In this document: positions 13,849 through 54,812 of the stretch, piece by piece
Numbering within the stretch: position 1 is the first letter of the stretch
How the letters are laid out: the number at the start of each line of letters is the position of its first letter
Origin: a candidate division TM6 bacterium UASB340
GTDB taxonomy: Bacteria; Babelota; Babeliae; Babelales; UASB340
Assembly (NCBI GenBank): GCA_001468925.1
Contig: LDIX01000005.1
Coordinates: 2,184 to 66,183, forward strand
DNA: 64,000 nt
Direction: 5' to 3'
Notes under the pieces: model-generated
Databases searched by the model: none
What the model saw: only the letters and a program-made list of their open reading frames with translations
What the model was told of the DNA's origin: nothing
Translations under genes and position numbers: made by a program

Positions 13849-13947
13849 TAAATATCGACATAGCTTATTGAATATATAAAAAAATCTAATTTTTATTTCA
13901 TCCAAAATCTTAGTTTATCGTTAATTTAATAAAATGTGTGTGGATAA

Positions 13948-14087
13948 GTCATCCCGGGCTTGACCCGGGATCTCTTTTGTATGCATTCACTTTTTTATAA
14001 GTTTTTCTACTTTTTTATCGTAATAGTATTTTATATAGTAAAAGTGAATGTTCGAGAAGGAGATCCCCGATCGTAGTCGGGGATGAC
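13948..14087. mobile_element. gene-less mini-element (MITE-like) with the same hairpin ends as the GIY-YIG unit
   Basis: The ends are 13948-13978 GTCATCCCGGGCTTGACCCGGGATCTCTTTT and 14057-14087 AAGGAGATCCCCGATCGTAGTCGGGGATGAC, in inverted orientation. An inner 11-bp inverted repeat is also present (CATTCACTTTT 13984-13994 / AAAAGTGAATG 14040-14050). There is no ORF inside. Confidence 0.6.
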
Positions 14088-14223
14088 AAACGCATAAAAC
14101 TGATTTTATTGTATGTATGCTTTGAGTGGCAATATGATAGGACTTAAGACCTGTTAAGTGTATTTTATATTTGTGTTCTAAGTTAATTTTGCTTAAACAA
14201 TATTCGTGTTAAAAAAGAAATAA

Positions 14224-14275: not shown

Positions 14276-15244
14276 TTAGTTATTTTCGCCTTTTATTTTA
14301 TCATAAACAAAGGTTAAACCGGTATATTTTGATAAAACTTTTTTACCACGTTCTTTAGCACATTTAAATACAGGTGAAATTATTTCCATGGTAACTGCCG
14401 TTGCTATTGCACTGCCTAAATATTTTGCCCAATTTTCAACCTTGTAATCTTTAAATTCTTTTTCAACAGCACCAAATACATTTTCACGTATTGTGTCGCC
14501 AACTATTTTTGCATCCGACATATCAAAACCGCGATCTGCTATTTCAGATTTTGCTTTATCAAAAAACTTCTTTACATCTGTATCTGTTACTGGAAACATA
14601 TAAAAATATTTATTTAAAAAGTCCAAATTGTCTGCACTTAAATTAGCAAGTTCTCTTGTATTTAAAACTTTGATTAATAATAGTGTTTTTTCTTGAATTT
14701 CTTCGCCAATATTATTAATCATATAATTTTTAATAGCATCCAATTGTGCTTCGTCTTTTAAAACCCAAAACATAGGCGTTTGTGCTTTGTATTCATCTAT
14801 AATTGCTTTGCCTTGGTAATATGTTTCCGGTAAAAATACAGTTTCCAATGCTTTTCCCAAAACAGTATCTCTGTCACCAACATATTTTTTTTGAATTCTT
14901 AAATTTGAAGCATATTTGTTTATAGATTCATTTATTACGGTTATATTTTCTAATTGAACCGGATTTTTAATGTGAGCGTTTTTGCCTGACACTGGATCGT
15001 TATAGCCAAGTTTTAATTTTCTATAAGTATTTATATCCATATCTAAAATTAAAATCTCCGGATCTTTTTCAGTAGCATTTAAAAACAAACAGCCATTGGA
15101 ATAGTTCAAAGCTTTATTTTTAATCTCTTCAATATTTGTTTCAGTAGCACTTATATTTAATGATAACGTACTTAATAACATTAAATATAATAATTTATTT
15201 TTATTCACAAAGAGTCTCCCAAGTAAAAGTTTATAAGATAACAA
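14276..15244 (-). CDS. hypothetical exported protein
   Basis: 322-aa ORF with a signal-like N-terminus and a C-terminal hydrophobic segment. No motif recognised. Confidence 0.5.
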   Translation of the reverse strand: MLSYKLLLGRLFVNKNKLLYLMLLSTLSLNISATETNIEEIKNKALNYSNGCLFLNATEKDPEILILDMDINTYRKLKLGYNDPVSGKNAHIKNPVQLENITVINESINKYASNLRIQKKYVGDRDTVLGKALETVFLPETYYQGKAIIDEYKAQTPMFWVLKDEAQLDAIKNYMINNIGEEIQEKTLLLIKVLNTRELANLSADNLDFLNKYFYMFPVTDTDVKKFFDKAKSEIADRGFDMSDAKIVGDTIRENVFGAVEKEFKDYKVENWAKYLGSAIATAVTMEIISPVFKCAKERGKKVLSKYTGLTFVYDKIKGENN

Positions 15245-15262
15245 ACGAAGTTTAAGTCTATT

Positions 15263-16336
15263 TTATAAATTATTTTTTTCAATAGATTTTATACTAAAAA
15301 AAATAAATAAAAATATAAGAAGATAGGGTAAAAGTAAAATTATTGGATTCAAATTGAATTTTGCCAAAAAATTGGTTAACAAATCGGTTAATAACATTAT
15401 GGGATATGGTGTAAACATAATGGTCCATTTATATCTTAAATAGTTCTCAAAAAGTATAAATAAACAAAATGTTAAAACCGGGTAAATAATTATTTGTAGA
15501 TAAAAAAATATTCTTTTTAATAATTCAGAAATCATATTAAACCAGATATTTTGTGGTAAAAAGTCTTTTTCTAAAAAAATATTTTTTAAAAATAATGAAA
15601 GTGGTGGAATTTTATCTTCCATTTTAAGTTGTGAAAAAAAACTCGGCATATGTAAAATTTTATTTTTAGGATTTTTGTAATTGTTACTATTTATTTTTAC
15701 GATATTAGGCTTTTTAAGTTCAATTATTTCTCTGCTTGGTTTAATTTGAAATTTTTGAGAATTTATTATTTTGTATATTTTAAAATTTTCGTCTATATCA
15801 AGTAATATTATATTTGTTCCGGTATTATTTATTAAATTTAAAGATTGAAAATAGCAATAAGATTTATGCAATTTATTTTTATGCGATTTTATTTCCAGCC
15901 ATTTATTTGTTAAATTTTCACGATTTATTTTTTTTAGTTGCTTAAACTTAAATTGTTCAGATTTATTTTGTAATTTTAAAGTTATGTTTTCACGTCCAAT
16001 AAAAGAAATTAAAGATATAATTATTCCGGATATTAAAAATAGATTAAATAATTTTTTGTTATTTATATTTAGTATTTTAAATGTTTCCAGTTCATTTTGA
16101 TCGTGAAATTCTTTTATAACCATTATTGCTGAAAGCCAGCTGCTAATTTTAATAGATTCAAAAAATGATGGTCCTAAATTTAATAGAATGAATTGCAAAA
16201 TAGTCTCAATACCTACGTTTTTTGTTCGAGCCATTTTTTCAAAAAACTCTATAAAATTAAAGAGTAGTGTAAAACTTAAATTTATTAAGAATAAATATTT
16301 AAAATAGTTTTTAAAAAAGTATTTTTCAAATATCAT
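15263..16336 (-). CDS. LptF/LptG-family (YjgP/YjgQ) permease
   Basis: The N-terminus IFEKYFFKNYFKYLFLINLSFTLLFNFIEFFEK and the layout of 3 TM segments, a periplasmic domain and 3 more TM segments are typical of LPS export permeases. Confidence 0.65.
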   Translation of the reverse strand: MIFEKYFFKNYFKYLFLINLSFTLLFNFIEFFEKMARTKNVGIETILQFILLNLGPSFFESIKISSWLSAIMVIKEFHDQNELETFKILNINNKKLFNLFLISGIIISLISFIGRENITLKLQNKSEQFKFKQLKKINRENLTNKWLEIKSHKNKLHKSYCYFQSLNLINNTGTNIILLDIDENFKIYKIINSQKFQIKPSREIIELKKPNIVKINSNNYKNPKNKILHMPSFFSQLKMEDKIPPLSLFLKNIFLEKDFLPQNIWFNMISELLKRIFFYLQIIIYPVLTFCLFILFENYLRYKWTIMFTPYPIMLLTDLLTNFLAKFNLNPIILLLPYLLIFLFIFFSIKSIEKNNL

Positions 16337-34659: not shown

Positions 34660-36534
34660 TTGTTTATGAAAAGAAGATTTTTTAAAATATTTGTTTTTAG
34701 CCTGAGTCTTATTTTAATAAATAATACTTTTGCTATGTCTACTGAAAATATAAATCAAGTTACAAACGATAAGCTTGCGCTCGATTCTTTGATTGCATTA
34801 AAAACACAATTTATAAAAAATCTTGAAAAAATATTTATGTGTAAAAATTATTGGGAGTTGCGTTATTACTCACCAACAGTTGATAATAAAGTTGCTGATT
34901 TTGTTTTTAATTCCAGTGATAATGTAAAACAAAAAGTAGAAAAGCTTGATGCAATAAAAATTCGATATTCTATATATTTGGGCAAAATCGATGAGCTTAT
35001 ATCTGTAATTACAAGAAATAATTCAAGCGAAGATTTAATAAGCGAAGTAGATTTTTGTATAAATTCTTTTTTCTCAAAAAATATTTACCCCGGAACGAAT
35101 GGGTATCAAAAGGAATTTGAGCTGTTTAAAAATTACGATTCAGAACAGATGGATAAAATTATAGAAGCTAACAGGATAAATATAGCAACTCTTAAAATTT
35201 ATTTTAAAAGTTTGTTAAAAGAGTTTGATGTGCCAAATTATTTTGAAAGAAATTGGCTAAAAATTACTGCTGGAAGCGCTGGAATTGCCACTTCGGCATA
35301 TTTAATTTACAAAAATAAAGATAAATTTAGATATCAAAATACTGCAGAACAAAGAATCAAAAATAAGGCTGAAAAAATAATTGCAAAATTTAAAGATGAG
35401 ACTGCTTATCAAGATTTAAAAAATAAAGAAAAATTGACGCGAGATGATTTGTTTGATTTGGCGGAGGCTATTTTTTCAGAACAATATAAAGGCAATGAGA
35501 GCAATAAGACTGAAATATTAGATAAAAAAGAACAGATAAATGAAAAAATTGATGATATACAAAAAAATTTTTCGAAATTTACAGAAAAAACTAACTTAAC
35601 ATTACAAAATTTAAGTTCAGAATTAAAAGATGGTATTAATGTAGAAAAAATTAAGGAATTAAAAACTGAATTTAATAAATCTTATAGCTCTACCATTGAA
35701 GAATTAAAAAAAATTATTAATGGAACAAAAGATAGTATAAAAGATGAGTCAAAATCTGAAGTTATTGGTCTTTTTTCTAAAATTCTAAATTTTATTTCTG
35801 GTGGCTATAGTCAGCAGGCATCTGAATTGGTTGATAGATCTTTTAAAGATGCTAATTTTACTCTTGATACATTTGAAAATGGTCTTTTTGCTGTAAATAA
35901 AACTTTAGAAACTTTTTGCGATGTATTGGAAACTACTGGAAATTTAAATGGCAAATTGAATAATTTGGGAACTCAGACTATTGATATTGCAGGCAATTTT
36001 TTAACAGATATTGATAGTCTAGAAACTAAATTAAAAGAAACTTTGAATTCAGGATTTGATTTATTGCAAAAATCCATAAATTTAGTAGACGATTACGAAA
36101 ATAGAATTCCAGATATTGCTGCAATATCTAATGTGATATTATCAAGATTATTTATTGATGTATCCAATACAACTAAGAATATTATTTTTGCAATAGCTTC
36201 AATTACCATTTTAGGACGGATGGCTAAACGAATTTTGGCTACGCATTCTAGTAAAATGAAAAATATTAATTCTGTAGAAATTGAAATTTGTAAGATTTTA
36301 ATAAAATATCAAAGTCAGACAAAAGATGTCTTTTTTGATTCTATAAATTATGCAGATAAGGGTTTATTTATTTATTACATGGAAAAACTACAAAATTTAT
36401 CAAATGGAATTTTGGGACAAGATAAGATTAATTTGATAAAGTTGATTGATGCACTTAATGATAAGTCAAAAACAATTTATGAAAAAGTTAATTTAATAAA
36501 GTTAGAGCAAAATTCTATGCTTGTTGGAGCTTAA
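34660..36534 (+). CDS. hypothetical exported coiled-coil protein
   Basis: 624-aa ORF with a signal peptide, long K/E/N-rich helical segments and a hydrophobic segment near residue 200. No motif recognised. Confidence 0.5.
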   Translation: MFMKRRFFKIFVFSLSLILINNTFAMSTENINQVTNDKLALDSLIALKTQFIKNLEKIFMCKNYWELRYYSPTVDNKVADFVFNSSDNVKQKVEKLDAIKIRYSIYLGKIDELISVITRNNSSEDLISEVDFCINSFFSKNIYPGTNGYQKEFELFKNYDSEQMDKIIEANRINIATLKIYFKSLLKEFDVPNYFERNWLKITAGSAGIATSAYLIYKNKDKFRYQNTAEQRIKNKAEKIIAKFKDETAYQDLKNKEKLTRDDLFDLAEAIFSEQYKGNESNKTEILDKKEQINEKIDDIQKNFSKFTEKTNLTLQNLSSELKDGINVEKIKELKTEFNKSYSSTIEELKKIINGTKDSIKDESKSEVIGLFSKILNFISGGYSQQASELVDRSFKDANFTLDTFENGLFAVNKTLETFCDVLETTGNLNGKLNNLGTQTIDIAGNFLTDIDSLETKLKETLNSGFDLLQKSINLVDDYENRIPDIAAISNVILSRLFIDVSNTTKNIIFAIASITILGRMAKRILATHSSKMKNINSVEIEICKILIKYQSQTKDVFFDSINYADKGLFIYYMEKLQNLSNGILGQDKINLIKLIDALNDKSKTIYEKVNLIKLEQNSMLVGA

Positions 36535-37774
36535 AATGATAGATTTAAATTTATTAAGAACAAATACTGAAAAAATAAAAAGCTTAATTTTAAAAAAAGA
36601 ACCTAAATTTGATATAGAAAAATTGATTGAGCTTGATAAATCTGTTCGTTTGGTAAATGCTGAAATTGAAAATTTACGTAAAGAAAAAAACGAACTCGCT
36701 GCCAAAGGTAAGCAAGGTGTCACACAAGAGATTCGTGAAAAATCTATAGAAATTGGCAGTAAGTTGAAACAAAAAGAAGTTGATCTTATTGATATTGAAA
36801 AAGAGTTCAAAAAATTGGCACTTTCTTGTCCAAATATACCTCAAGAAGATATTCCGGCTGGAAATAAAGAATCAAACAAAACTGCTTGGGAATTTGGATC
36901 AAAAAAAATATTTGATTTCAAGCCTAAAAATCACGTTGAACTTAATGAAAAATTAGATTGGTTTGATTTTGATGCGGCAACTGCAATGTCCGGATCAAAT
37001 TTTATTTTTTATAAAAAAGATGCAGTAAAGATGATTTATGCATTAACGAATTTAATGCTTAAAAATAATTATGCCCATGGTTTTGAACCGGTTATTCCTC
37101 CATACTTGGTAAAAGAACAAGCACTTGTAAATTCAAGCAATTTACCAAAATTTGAGGGCGACTTTTATAAAATGCAGGACGATCTTTGCTTGATACCTAC
37201 TGCAGAAGTAAGTTTAACAAATGTTCATGCAAACCAAATATTGAATGCTACAGATTTACCAAAACGATATGCTGCTTGGACAAGTTGCTTTAGACGTGAA
37301 GCCGGTGGATATGGTTCAACTGAAAGAGGGTTAATTCGAATTCATCAATTTGAAAAAGTTGAGATTTATTCAATATGTAAACCGGAAGATTCAAATGAAG
37401 AATTAGTTCGCATGATAAAAACAGCCGAAAAAATTTTGCAATCACTCGGATTACATTACAGAGTTAGCTTACTGGCAGCCCAAGATTGCTCTTTTGCATC
37501 TTCAAAAACTTATGATATAGAAGTTTGGCTTCCGGGACAAAATCAATATTATGAAGTTTCTTCTTGCAGTAATTGTACCGATTTTCAATCCCGACGTGCT
37601 CAAATAAGATTTAGAAAAAATGCGGATTCAAAACCTGAACTTGTTCACACTTTAAATTCTTCAGCTGTGGCACTTCCAAGGCTTATGGTTGCAATTATGG
37701 AAACATATCAGCAAGAAGATGGTTCGATTAAATTTCCAAAAGTTTTGCAGGATGCGATGGATAACTTGTGGTAA
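36521..37774 (+). CDS. serS: seryl-tRNA synthetase
   Basis: N-terminal coiled-coil MIDLNLLR..., and class II motifs (FRREAGGYG, RIHQFEKVE, GQNQYYEVSSCSNCTDFQSRR, LNSSAVALPR). The likely true start is the ATG at 36536. Confidence 0.9.
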   Translation: MLELKMIDLNLLRTNTEKIKSLILKKEPKFDIEKLIELDKSVRLVNAEIENLRKEKNELAAKGKQGVTQEIREKSIEIGSKLKQKEVDLIDIEKEFKKLALSCPNIPQEDIPAGNKESNKTAWEFGSKKIFDFKPKNHVELNEKLDWFDFDAATAMSGSNFIFYKKDAVKMIYALTNLMLKNNYAHGFEPVIPPYLVKEQALVNSSNLPKFEGDFYKMQDDLCLIPTAEVSLTNVHANQILNATDLPKRYAAWTSCFRREAGGYGSTERGLIRIHQFEKVEIYSICKPEDSNEELVRMIKTAEKILQSLGLHYRVSLLAAQDCSFASSKTYDIEVWLPGQNQYYEVSSCSNCTDFQSRRAQIRFRKNADSKPELVHTLNSSAVALPRLMVAIMETYQQEDGSIKFPKVLQDAMDNLW

Positions 37775-37937
37775 TTCTGTAAAATAGTTTTGTGTGGGAC
37801 CAGATTCTGAAATCCGACTTATGCATAAAGCTATGGCTGACAAGCAGTATGACAAAGAATTTTGGTTTGAAAGTTTGGATTAAATTGGGGGACGGTCTTT
37901 AGCAACGTTGCTAAATTAAGATTTTACGAAGAAGTGT

Positions 37938-38381
37938 GTCATCCCGGCCGCCGAGCCGGGATCTCTTTCTTGAACTTTCGTATTTAATGCTATAACTATG
38001 AAAATTTATATTGTTTATATTATTACTAATCGGCCAAATGGCATTATTTATGTTGGTATTACCAGTGACCTAAAACGGCGAATGGCTGAACATAAACTTG
38101 GCATAATAAAAGGCTTCACACAAAAATATAAGCTAAAAAAGTTAGTTTATATTGAACAATTTGAGCTTGCCGACGATGCTATTAGAAGAGAAAAACAGTT
38201 AAAGCGTTGGCATAAAAAATGGAAATTTGATTTGATAGAAAAACATAATCCTGAATGGGATGATTTGTCTGAAAAATATTTTAATTCAAATGATATAGAG
38301 TATGATAAATGGATTTTGAATAGAAATATTTATAAGAAGTGAATGTATGAAAAGAGATCCCGGCTCGGTGGCCGGGATGAC
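37938..38381 (+). mobile_element. GIY-YIG gene cassette bounded by 31-nt inverted hairpin repeats (REPtron-like unit)
   Basis: 37938-37968 is GTCATCCCGGCCGCCGAGCCGGGATCTCTTT. The reverse complement of 38351-38381 is GTCATCCCGGCCACCGAGCCGGGATCTCTTT, which is 30/31 identical. Each end is itself a GC-rich hairpin. Confidence 0.6.
37998..38342 (+). CDS. GIY-YIG (URI-domain, COG2827-like) nuclease family protein
   Basis: YIVYIITN...GIIYVGITSDLKRRMAEHK...REKQLKRW carries the GIY/YIG, catalytic Arg and Glu motifs of small stand-alone GIY-YIG proteins. Confidence 0.85.
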   Translation: MKIYIVYIITNRPNGIIYVGITSDLKRRMAEHKLGIIKGFTQKYKLKKLVYIEQFELADDAIRREKQLKRWHKKWKFDLIEKHNPEWDDLSEKYFNSNDIEYDKWILNRNIYKK

Positions 38382-38476
38382 AACCGAAAATTTTATCATA
38401 GCTGGCAAGTGCAGAGTGTAATGCTTTTGAGATATATTTTTTAAATTGACAGCATTGCGGTATTTAGGGGCATATT

Positions 38477-39601
38477 TTGAATAATTTTGAACATATCTAT
38501 ATTCATTGGCCATTTTGCAATAGCAAATGTTACTACTGCGATTTTTTATCTTTTTGTAATAAAACAAATCAAGATAAAGAATATCATGATGTTTTATGTT
38601 CACAGCTAAAATATTTTAAAGATAATAATTCAAAAATTAAAACTATCTATATTGGTGGCGGTACACCATCGATATATCCACTTGATTTATTAAAAGAACT
38701 TTTTGAAAATTTAAATAAAAATTTTGATTTAAGTGATGCCAAAGAAATTACAATTGAAGCTAATCCTGCAGATATTACCAAAGAAAAACTTGAGGCTTGG
38801 AAAAGCTTTGGAATAAACAGATTGAGTATGGGTGTTCAAATTTTAGATGACCAAATTTTGGCAAAAATTGGACGCCGACAAACAGTTTCAGATGCTATTA
38901 ATGCTATAAAATTGTCTAAAAAATATTTTGATAATATTTCAGTAGATTTAATTTTGGGACTACCTGATGTTACTGATGAAATTTGGCAAAATAGCTTGAA
39001 AGCAGTTGTTTCTTGGCCGGTAAAACATATATCGGTTTACATTTTAACTTTATATAATAAAACAAAACTGTATGATTTAGTTAAAAGAAATGAGATTTCT
39101 TTGCAAAAAGATGATACAATAATTTCCCATTACATAAAGACTGTAGAGTTTCTGGAAAAAAATGATTTTATGCAATATGAAATATCAAATTTTTCCAAAG
39201 TTGGCTTTGAATCACTTCATAATATGGCTTATTGGGATAGAAAGCCGTATTTAGGACTTGGATTGGGAGCAAGTTCTTTTGATGGAACTGCACGGTATGT
39301 AAATGAAACAAATTTGAATAAATTTTTAAATATAAATTTAAACCCGCTTAATTGCGCTCAAAAAGAGATATTGACCGACAAGCAAGTGTTTATAGAGAAG
39401 TTGATGCTCGATTTGCGTAAGAAAAACGGGGGGGACTTGCATAGTATGTTATACTTTTTAAAGAGTGCTGATAAAATTAAGTTTTTAAATAGTATAGAAG
39501 AATTAAAAAAACAAGGTTTAATTCTTCAAATCGGGGGTAAGGTTTCTCTTACTCAAAAAGGTTTACTACTCGAGAATGAAGTTGTTTTGAAGTTAATATA
39601 A
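38477..39601 (+). CDS. hemW: radical-SAM heme chaperone HemW / oxygen-independent coproporphyrinogen-III oxidase-like
   Basis: YIHWPFCNSKCYYCDF is the CxxxCxxC radical-SAM cluster motif in the HemN/HemW context, with GGGTPS. The apparent start codon is TTG. Confidence 0.85.
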   Translation: MNNFEHIYIHWPFCNSKCYYCDFLSFCNKTNQDKEYHDVLCSQLKYFKDNNSKIKTIYIGGGTPSIYPLDLLKELFENLNKNFDLSDAKEITIEANPADITKEKLEAWKSFGINRLSMGVQILDDQILAKIGRRQTVSDAINAIKLSKKYFDNISVDLILGLPDVTDEIWQNSLKAVVSWPVKHISVYILTLYNKTKLYDLVKRNEISLQKDDTIISHYIKTVEFLEKNDFMQYEISNFSKVGFESLHNMAYWDRKPYLGLGLGASSFDGTARYVNETNLNKFLNINLNPLNCAQKEILTDKQVFIEKLMLDLRKKNGGDLHSMLYFLKSADKIKFLNSIEELKKQGLILQIGGKVSLTQKGLLLENEVVLKLI

Positions 39602-44580: not shown

Positions 44581-44657
44581 GGCGACGTAGCTCAGCTGGT
44601 TAGAGCGACGGAATCATAATCCGTAGGTCCGGGGTTCGATTCCCTGCGTCGCTACCA
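44581..44657 (+). tRNA. tRNA with CAT anticodon (elongator Met or lysidine-modified Ile2), CCA encoded
   Basis: Cloverleaf: acceptor GGCGACG/CGTCGCT, D arm GCTC-AGCTGGTTAG-AGC, anticodon arm ACGGA-ATCATAA-TCCGT, T arm CGGGG-TTCGATT-CCCTG. It lacks the GGG/CCC anticodon stem of an initiator. Confidence 0.9.
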
Positions 44658-44852: not shown

Positions 44853-44982
44853 GAAGGGCGATAGCCCTTCGCTACCACAGTAACGCCATGCCAGAGGCAG
44901 GCTTTTTTGTTTTTTATAATAAATTCGAGTTAGCCCACTTCAGATGGGCGATATTGGGTTAGCGAACGGCTATCGCCGTTCG
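44853..44982. repeat. structured GC-rich repeat family 2, copy A (MITE-like, long hairpin-containing inverted ends)
   Basis: The left end is GAAGGGC-GATA-GCCCTTC GCTACCA...GCCATGCC-AGA-GGCAGGC. The right end, reverse-complemented, is CGAACGGC-GATA-GCCGTTC GCTAACC...CGCCCATCTGAAGTGGGC. An AT-rich spacer lies between them. Confidence 0.6.
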
Positions 44983-54675: not shown

Positions 54676-54812
54676 GGAAGGCGATAGCCTTCCTCTACCA
54701 TAATATCGCCATGCCACTGGCAGGCTAATTTGTATTACGTAATAAATATTATTTCAAACGAGCCCACTTTAGATGGGCGACAGTAGGTTAGCGCAATGCT
54801 ACCGCTTTGCGC
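54676..54812. repeat. structured GC-rich repeat family 2, copy B
   Basis: GGAAGGC-GATA-GCCTTCC TCTACCA...GCCATGCC-ACT-GGCAGGC ... GCCCA-CTTTAGA-TGGGC ... GCGCAATGC-TACC-GCTTTGCGC. It is collinear with copy A, and the stems differ by compensatory changes. Confidence 0.6.

Follow-up and report, generated by a model that had tools for sequence, protein, structure and literature searches.

A 446-bp cassette in which a gene for a small GIY-YIG nuclease lies between inverted hairpin repeats (positions 37937-38382) was analysed within a 64,000-nucleotide stretch of genomic DNA from the candidate division TM6 bacterium UASB340, referred to here as the window. The cassette is intergenic and separates serS (36521-37774) from a hemW/hemN-like radical-SAM gene (38477-39601). 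Its single open reading frame (ORF), hereafter ssn, runs from 37998 to 38342 on the + strand, including the stop codon, and encodes 114 amino acids (aa). A Pfam search identified a GIY-YIG domain (PF01541, E=4.9e-18) at residues 4-76, and the related family T5orf172, at threshold, was the sole other Pfam family to match. No further domain, DNA-binding domains included, and no Y1 transposase or other known transposase family was found by Pfam, and a scan against NCBIfam returned no family above its own cut-off. The catalytic residues Y7, Y18, R28, H32, E65 and N84 are all intact; across 29 homologues Y18 and E65 never vary and Y7 hardly does, with R28, H32 and N84 likewise conserved. The protein ends in a 20-aa C-terminal tail that is common only to its closest relatives. 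The public record of this gene (P0002) gives a product of 86 aa starting from Met29, which is devoid of the GIY and YIG motifs and of R28. Alignment with homologues, among them a 114-aa relative with 89% identity (P0071), places the true start at the ATG at 37998.

The left terminal repeat (37937..37979, +) is made up of the hairpin TGTCATCCCGGCCGCCGAGCCGGGATC and an inner extension TCTTTCTTGAACTTTC. It carries a GTC tag followed by an 8-bp stem (37941-37948 paired with 37955-37962) that encloses a 6-nt loop, with a C at 37963 directly after the stem. The right terminal repeat (38337..38382, -) consists of TGTCATCCCGGCCACCGAGCCGGGATC and the inner extension TCTTTTCATACATTCACTT, the latter overlapping the ssn stop codon. 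At both ends the tag points outward. The inverted arms (37937-37968 and 38351-38382) measure 32 nt, are 97% complementary and are separated by 382 nt; both contain the perfect 8-bp stem ATCCCGGC/GCCGGGAT, and their lone mismatch (G/A at 37950) is located in the loop.

Further copies of the hairpin occur elsewhere in the window. The pattern GTCATCCC-N-GGGATC has five matches (13948+, 14062-, 37938+, 38356- and 51609-) compared with 0.01 expected from shuffled sequences, and the copies remote from the gene are therefore also real. Two of these form a gene-less inverted pair of 140 bp (13947..14088), in which two opposed hairpins (13947-13975 on the + strand, 14059-14088 on the - strand) lie 91 nt apart with their tags outward; the folding energy of the complete element is -25 kcal/mol (z = -6.0). 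The other is a solo hairpin (~51597..51635, -; TGTCATCCCATGCCAGGATATGGGATCCAGGTCTCTTTT) whose stem has 7 bp and whose tail, CCA, is the one usual in CGTC-tagged repetitive extragenic palindromes (REPs); it is positioned between convergent ORFs at 50620-51408 (+) and 51675-52388 (-). When folded as single-stranded DNA (ssDNA), four of the five copies reach -7.7 to -10.4 kcal/mol, the solo copy being the weakest at -4.7 kcal/mol. The stems vary yet stay paired (CCCGGG, CCCCGA, CCCGGC, CCCAT), indicating covariation, and every copy keeps GTC before the palindrome and C directly after it. A previous inspection of the bare nucleotide sequence (the sequence-only reading) had proposed the 114-aa ORF, the inverted hairpin ends with a single loop mismatch, the gene-less recurrence at 13948..14087 and the solo copy at 51597..51634, and had likened the layout to a REPtron, i.e. 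an IS200/IS605-type HUH tyrosine transposase gene (REP-associated tyrosine transposase, RAYT) flanked by GTAG-tagged REPs. The present analysis bears out this anatomy in each respect.

The same arrangement characterises the Ssn family of ~94-aa GIY-YIG site-specific ssDNA endonucleases (Chenal et al. 2025, Nat Commun 16:2388; PMC11893778). SsnA of Neisseria meningitidis is a 94-aa single-domain GIY-YIG protein (CDD cd10448) that binds the NTS repeat CGTCATTCCCGCGMAVGCGGGAATCYRG, which contains dRS3, as ssDNA only and nicks it a few nt upstream; double-stranded DNA (dsDNA), RNA and the reverse strand are not cut (PMC11893778). Cleavage is governed by three bases upstream of the palindrome, while the C after the palindrome is the top base for binding, and the variants Y6A, Y17A and E64A abolish cutting (PMC11893778). 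The NTS/SRM core has the form GTCAT-palindrome-C. The ssn genes are typically flanked by such repeats, with an SRM near 71% of homologues and on both sides in 42%, and four homologues (from three Neisseria species and Wolbachia) bind and cut their own flanking repeat as ssDNA (PMC11893778). In Neisseria, SsnA restricts incoming transforming ssDNA; NTS-ssnA-NTS was likened to an insertion sequence (IS) and to REP/RAYT, and domestication was proposed in the discussion of that paper (PMC11893778). In a 2026 preprint, SsnA-associated repeats already serve as one of the known repeat types for benchmarking.

We assessed homology using a gonococcal orthologue as the reference, rather than N. meningitidis SsnA itself. 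A tblastn search of a 7.3-Gb plasmid collection with the window protein gave one place in each of two N. gonorrhoeae records (E=2e-18; the homologue threshold of Chenal et al. was tblastn E<1e-10). The gonococcal ORF (L165:1489-1770) has 94 codons, contains Y6, Y17 and E64 and lies among canonical NTS copies, which identifies it as the ssnA orthologue. BLASTP aligns the window protein with it over 88 aa without a gap, at 44% identity and 68% positives (E=1e-28), and Y7, Y18 and E65 coincide with Y6, Y17 and E64. The two N. gonorrhoeae records are 2.17-Mb chromosomes filed as plasmids in the collection. In L165 (NZ_CP119142.1 1880219-1883473) the ssnA orthologue has ATT at the expected start, and the ATG close by is in another reading frame; either a pseudogene or the use of a rare start codon may explain this. 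The (incomplete) gene table of the collection lists no feature at this place.

At the level of the DNA, both gene-flanking hairpins read GTC + ATCCCGGC...GCCGGGAT + C and so possess the functional determinants of the published SRM. Taken together with the homology of the protein, we consider the cassette to be an SRM-ssn-SRM unit of the Ssn family with a probability of roughly 85%, the activity of this particular protein being inferred from that of its homologues. The proposal of the sequence-only reading that the protein recognises this hairpin family is likewise supported by the biochemistry of the homologues (PMC11893778) and by the similarity to Neisseria ssnA. Its layout and hairpin recognition can hence be retained, in contrast to its claim that such a system was undescribed: Ssn and SRM were published in 2025, including the comparison with IS and REP/RAYT, and the hairpin class had been catalogued in 2013. 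The window provides a further, uncharacterised example and adds one member to the family.

Homologues from other genomes show the same association of gene and hairpin. A homologue search yielded 70 small GIY-YIG proteins, several with C-termini that read like translated hairpins, and a search of genome contigs with an alignment of nine sequences located 80 loci encoding homologues. These span Babeliales, Bacteroidota, Alpha- and Gammaproteobacteria, groups of the candidate phyla radiation (CPR), Cloacimonadota, Bifidobacterium, Acidobacteriota and others, with the motif repeatedly found beside the gene; the best genomic homologue of the window ssn, at 63% identity, belongs to a metagenome-assembled genome of the Babeliales. 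Association was counted for 89 ssn copies situated away from contig edges, in 81 sources, using a structure-based hairpin scan. An SRM-like hairpin was present on both sides of 41 copies and on one side of a further 21. The hairpin density was 2.08/kb at up to 250 bp from the gene and 0.074/kb at more than 1 kb from it, so that hairpins are about 30-fold enriched beside ssn homologues. With the published SRM pattern the corresponding values were 0.97/kb near ssn and 0.032/kb away; this pattern under-detects, reporting hairpins at 33 of the 89 genes compared with 62 for the structure-based scan. As in the window, tags outward is the dominant orientation. The commonest arrangement of neighbouring hairpins across the 81 sources is a gene-less pair with tags outward (40 cases, median gap 42 nt), compared with 28 cases in which ssn lies between the hairpins. 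We also collected 242 motif matches without applying any structural criterion. In 147 of these the four inner stem positions are all paired, with 15 different stems represented, which implies that the hairpin itself is conserved, beyond its sequence. The exact Neisseria NTS consensus was beside none of the 89 homologues. The close relatives L001, L081 and L082 (63-78% aa identity) bear the same ends as the window copy; both this and the enrichment of hairpins next to GIY-YIG genes agree with what the sequence-only reading had expected of homologous loci.

A 66%-identical ssn homologue at L083 (500-1340) is set amid dense mosaics of hairpins and other repeats, an arrangement reminiscent of the Neisseria intergenic mosaic elements (NIMEs). 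A block of ~140 nt is directly repeated on either side of this ssn, and the ORF runs into the downstream hairpin. The unusual C-termini of P0007, P0009 and P0011 resemble the product of such read-through, an assessment based only on their protein sequences.

Several observations weigh against assignment of the window cassette to the Ssn family. The published degenerate SRM pattern, HGTCWYN(0-2)YYVSBRHN(0-5)WNVSBRGN(0-2)RNCYNB, matches two of the five window copies, those of the gene-less pair (13947-13975 and 14059-14088, with 0.01 matches expected), and this in itself counts in favour of membership. Both gene-flanking hairpins are missed, as a manual check showed, since their stem CCCGGCC places a C at an R position; the solo copy likewise falls outside the pattern. 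The tail of the gene-flanking hairpins is CTCTTT, not the usual CCA or CYRG. In addition, the window protein is only 44% identical to an orthologue of a characterised homologue, from which its activity is inferred, and both specificity and cut position differ between Ssn homologues (PMC11893778). The sole demonstrated role is to limit natural transformation in Neisseria, which may have no counterpart in an intracellular Babeliales-like organism. Finally, both gene-flanking hairpins fit the stem-plus-T-run pattern of a terminator (two matches compared with 0.4 expected in a 1.1-kb region), a point to which we return below.

If the cassette is an Ssn unit, the window protein may share the ssDNA-specific binding and cleavage of its homologues. 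In the mechanism we propose, ssn would encode a monomeric single-domain GIY-YIG endonuclease that recognises its cognate repeat only as ssDNA folded into a hairpin, the repeat being composed of the GTC tag, an 8-bp palindromic stem that starts with AT, a short loop and the C right after the stem. A Mg-dependent nick would be introduced a few nt 5' of the tag, on the same strand and in non-conserved flanking sequence. Because both tags face outward, the predicted nicks, at ~37928-37937 (+) and ~38382-38391 (-), would fall on opposite strands just outside the unit. The same enzyme would also act on the hairpins of the gene-less pair (13947-14088) and on the solo copy near 51600. The host is probably an intracellular Babeliales bacterium, as its base composition and the best genomic homologue (63% identity) suggest; the enzyme might there keep ssDNA recombination intermediates in check or serve the selfish upkeep of the repeat family.

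The extent of the unit was delineated by aligning eight ends, taken from the window and the relatives L081 and L082 (77-78% protein identity). Similarity among the ends begins exactly at GTCAT and extends inward for ~41-45 nt, comprising the hairpin and CTCTTTCTTGAACATTCACTT. The terminal inverted repeats of the cassette are thus 41-45 nt long and exceed the hairpin alone. The outer flanks of the three copies are unrelated, similarity ending sharply at ...GGGATGAC. No target-site duplication was visible at any end examined. Both ends of the gene-less pair at 13947-14088 are of the type found at the right end of the cassette, and each has remnants of the ssn stop and last codons; for this reason the 140-bp element looks like a derivative of ssn units, akin to a miniature inverted-repeat transposable element (MITE) or a REP dimer. 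We had considered concerted evolution of both ends as a sign of recent transposition. The two ends carry like hairpin types in the window, L082 and L001, but approximately half of the other units carry different types at their two ends, and this was dropped as a general argument.

These features raise the possibility, compatible with membership of the Ssn family, that the cassette is an autonomous transposon-like or homing unit whose Ssn nicks drive its own spread and generate gene-less derivatives. Ssn would then constitute the missing 'transposase', or mobilising enzyme, of the CGTC-tagged REPs: nicks on opposite strands outside the hairpins would trigger repair or replication that copies or excises the unit, leaving gene-less dimers like 13947-14088 and symmetric-hairpin scars such as that seen in Bradyrhizobium (see below). 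The same hypothesis was raised in the published discussion (PMC11893778). The sharp element ends with unrelated flanks in the window, L081 and L082, the terminal inverted repeats that extend beyond the hairpin and the 140-bp element with its remnants of the ssn 3' end are all in favour. The lack of a target-site duplication is not, and neither is the expected chemistry. GIY-YIG enzymes are hydrolytic nickases, for which we know of no strand-transfer chemistry; hydrolysis proceeds without a covalent intermediate and provides no HUH/RAYT-like strand rejoining, and the nicks would be on opposite strands, unlike the single-strand excision of IS200/IS605.

Comparison of related loci gives a similarly divided picture. 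SerS relatives were retrieved from a metagenome scan in order to compare the serS-hemW region. Two of these, L085 (5264-6688) and L086 (3490-4914), retain the order serS ... hemW ... 153-aa gene seen around 37775-38476 of the window. Neither has ssn between serS and hemW, an outcome that leaves the view of this locus taken by the sequence-only reading intact. Their serS-hemW interval instead holds two genes, one for a protein of 292-293 aa and one for a predicted membrane protein of 175-177 aa. The window has neither of these, and its shortened spacer is taken up by the ssn unit. As L085 and L086 carry two other genes and no ssn unit, the unit is not ancestral to the serS-hemW block, although these closest relatives are too distant (57-63% SerS identity) to represent a true empty site.

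In Bradyrhizobium, the contigs L009 and L015 are collinear but have ssn at different sites, each offering a filled and an empty site (L009 9840-10359 compared with L015 6017-6166, and L015 9868-10400 compared with L009 5972-6063). At one of the 'empty' sites there is a single symmetric hairpin, TGTCATCACCCGACTTCAAGCCGGGCGATGACAG, in which the outer halves of two SRMs are joined and no C follows the palindrome; at the other, a single gene-less SRM pair remains out of two that are directly repeated. Deletion between direct repeats could account for either site, and insertion and deletion are equally consistent with them. A complete unit is tandemly duplicated in Roseibium L022 (SRM-ssn-SRM, 14408-15461) relative to L075, which has a single unit and a solo hairpin at 14498-14860. 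In both Roseibium contigs there is, 4.5 kb away, a third and more distant ssn copy around which no hairpins were detected. Congeneric Flagellimonas and Micavibrio share the unit alone, with differing flanks. Against these cases stand several species pairs that have the unit at the same site, namely in Kordia, in Bdellovibrionales and in B. tunisiense and B. hipponense. On balance the evidence that Ssn mobilises its repeats is suggestive but ambiguous; we regard mobilisation as unproven and rather doubtful. The idea put forward in the sequence-only reading that the protein may mobilise or maintain the repeats accordingly stays a conjecture, in view of the absent target duplication, the hydrolytic chemistry and polymorphisms that are equally well read as deletions.

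A second explanation is that the hairpins are chiefly Rho-independent terminators or insulators that flank a small gene by chance. Besides the T-runs mentioned above, the left hairpin lies 160 nt downstream of serS and on the correct strand (+), the solo copy is located between convergent ORFs and REPs were noted to follow coding regions in most cases (Di Nocera et al., BMC Genomics 2013; PMC3733652). However, the T-run of the right hairpin is on the strand opposite to ssn (flagged on the - strand only). The hairpin has none on the ssn-coding strand and therefore cannot be the intrinsic terminator of ssn. Nor does termination require a GTC tag or a trailing C, both of which are invariant here and across phyla, and the function would not account for the concentration of hairpins around one gene family in unrelated genomes or for a gene-less pair of two opposed hairpins. 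The inability of SsnA to act on RNA (PMC11893778) also argues against it. We therefore judge a primary terminator function to be improbable, while a side-function in termination, for example of the left hairpin for serS, is possible. Still further from the data is a classical GIY-YIG homing endonuclease similar to I-TevI, encoded in a group I intron or free-standing as in phages and directed at a dsDNA homing site: GIY-YIG enzymes are indeed known as homing nucleases and residues 6-33 weakly match TIGR01453 (group I intron endonuclease; 24.7 bits), but this score is far under the family cut-off of 56 bits, the 114-aa protein has no DNA-binding domain, an Rfam scan found no intron or other family at the locus, which is intergenic between serS and hemW, and characterised homologues do not cut dsDNA (PMC11893778), making such an enzyme very unlikely.

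The window contains other repeats. A second, unrelated GC-rich family with the core GGTAGCGNNGGGCTATCGCC has three matches in the window, with none expected, and forms ~120-nt inverted modules at 44857-44977 and 54680-54805; one copy follows a tRNA gene (44581-44654) at a distance of 200 nt. Sequences related to GGTAGCGNNGGGCTATCGCC are also present right beside the ssn units of L081 (~450-490) and L082 (~625-665). A long coding region at 47400-51500 consists of tandem repeats of 84-87 nt and of 144 nt, with partly duplicated blocks 1592 nt apart; the repeat periods would fit leucine-rich repeats.

Widespread hairpin repeats, including dRS3, some Rickettsia palindromic elements (RPEs) and the CGTC-tagged REPs, were thought to be without an enzyme until Ssn was described in 2025. 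Existing knowledge is not changed by the window example, which is a compact and intact one from a poorly studied intracellular lineage, with exceptionally clean 41-45-nt inverted ends and a gene-less derivative within the same 64 kb. It offers another pair of enzyme and hairpin specificity for the ssDNA-cutting toolbox, of modest practical value. The cassette and its 140-bp derivative make a convenient test case for whether Ssn cassettes move and create repeat families. If they do, this would amount to a mode of transposition or homing based on a hydrolytic GIY-YIG ssDNA nickase, not a transposase.

The cassette can be compared with several known systems. UPF0213/YhbQ proteins (PDB 1YWL, 1ZG2) also consist of a stand-alone ~100-aa GIY-YIG domain. 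A search of solved structures with the window protein gave weak UPF0213 matches only (E=2e-4 and 5e-3, 20-25 bits), no Ssn structure being deposited. The similarity is marginal; UPF0213/YhbQ is a separate subfamily, for which we know of no reported association with hairpins. The ~41-45-nt inverted repeats, the gene-less derivative and the differing flanks in relatives are features of IS elements and MITEs, without a target-site duplication or a transposase match. REPtrons have the same layout, in which a small nuclease gene sits between inverted hairpins and gene-less singles and dimers also occur, and their enzyme acts on the hairpin in ssDNA, as for Ssn. The cassette is nonetheless not a RAYT system: its protein has no Y1 transposase match and would be a GIY-YIG hydrolytic nickase, not an HUH/Y1 transesterase, and its tag is GTC instead of GTAG. 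The analogy is confined to the layout, and with no covalent intermediate in GIY-YIG catalysis the RAYT model of excision and rejoining is not transferable.

The repeats themselves are closer to the CGTC-tagged REPs, which include dRS3 and the Rickettsia elements RPE-4 and RPE-6 and are defined by a CGTC or TGTC tag, an 8-9-bp stem starting from AT and a CCA tail, mostly as inverted dimers; in 2013 they were said to have no dedicated enzyme (PMC3733652). The window copies have in common with them the (C/T)GTC tag (TGTC in four copies, AGTC in one), the A-T and T-A pairs at the start of a stem of 7-8 bp, a short loop and tail, an intergenic location and inverted dimers. They differ in their loops of 5-8 nt, not 4-5 nt, and in a tail that is CTC in four copies and CCA in the solo copy only. 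Unlike the REPs as described in 2013, the repeats here and in the 2025 paper enclose an enzyme gene. In comparison with Ssn and NTS of Neisseria, the window unit belongs to a very AT-rich host from a phylum new to the family (probably Babeliales/Dependentiae), has the stem ATCCCGGC rather than ATTCCCGCG and the tail CTCTTT rather than CYRG/CCA, encodes a protein with the additional 20-aa C-terminal tail, and has inverted repeats that continue ~15-20 nt past the hairpin. What it shares with the Ssn/SRM systems is a ~100-aa single-domain GIY-YIG protein with the Tyr/Tyr/Glu residues, inverted GTCAT-palindrome-C flanks, further copies of the repeat and a host that is probably intracellular or symbiont-like, a trait already remarked on in SRM-rich genomes (PMC11893778).

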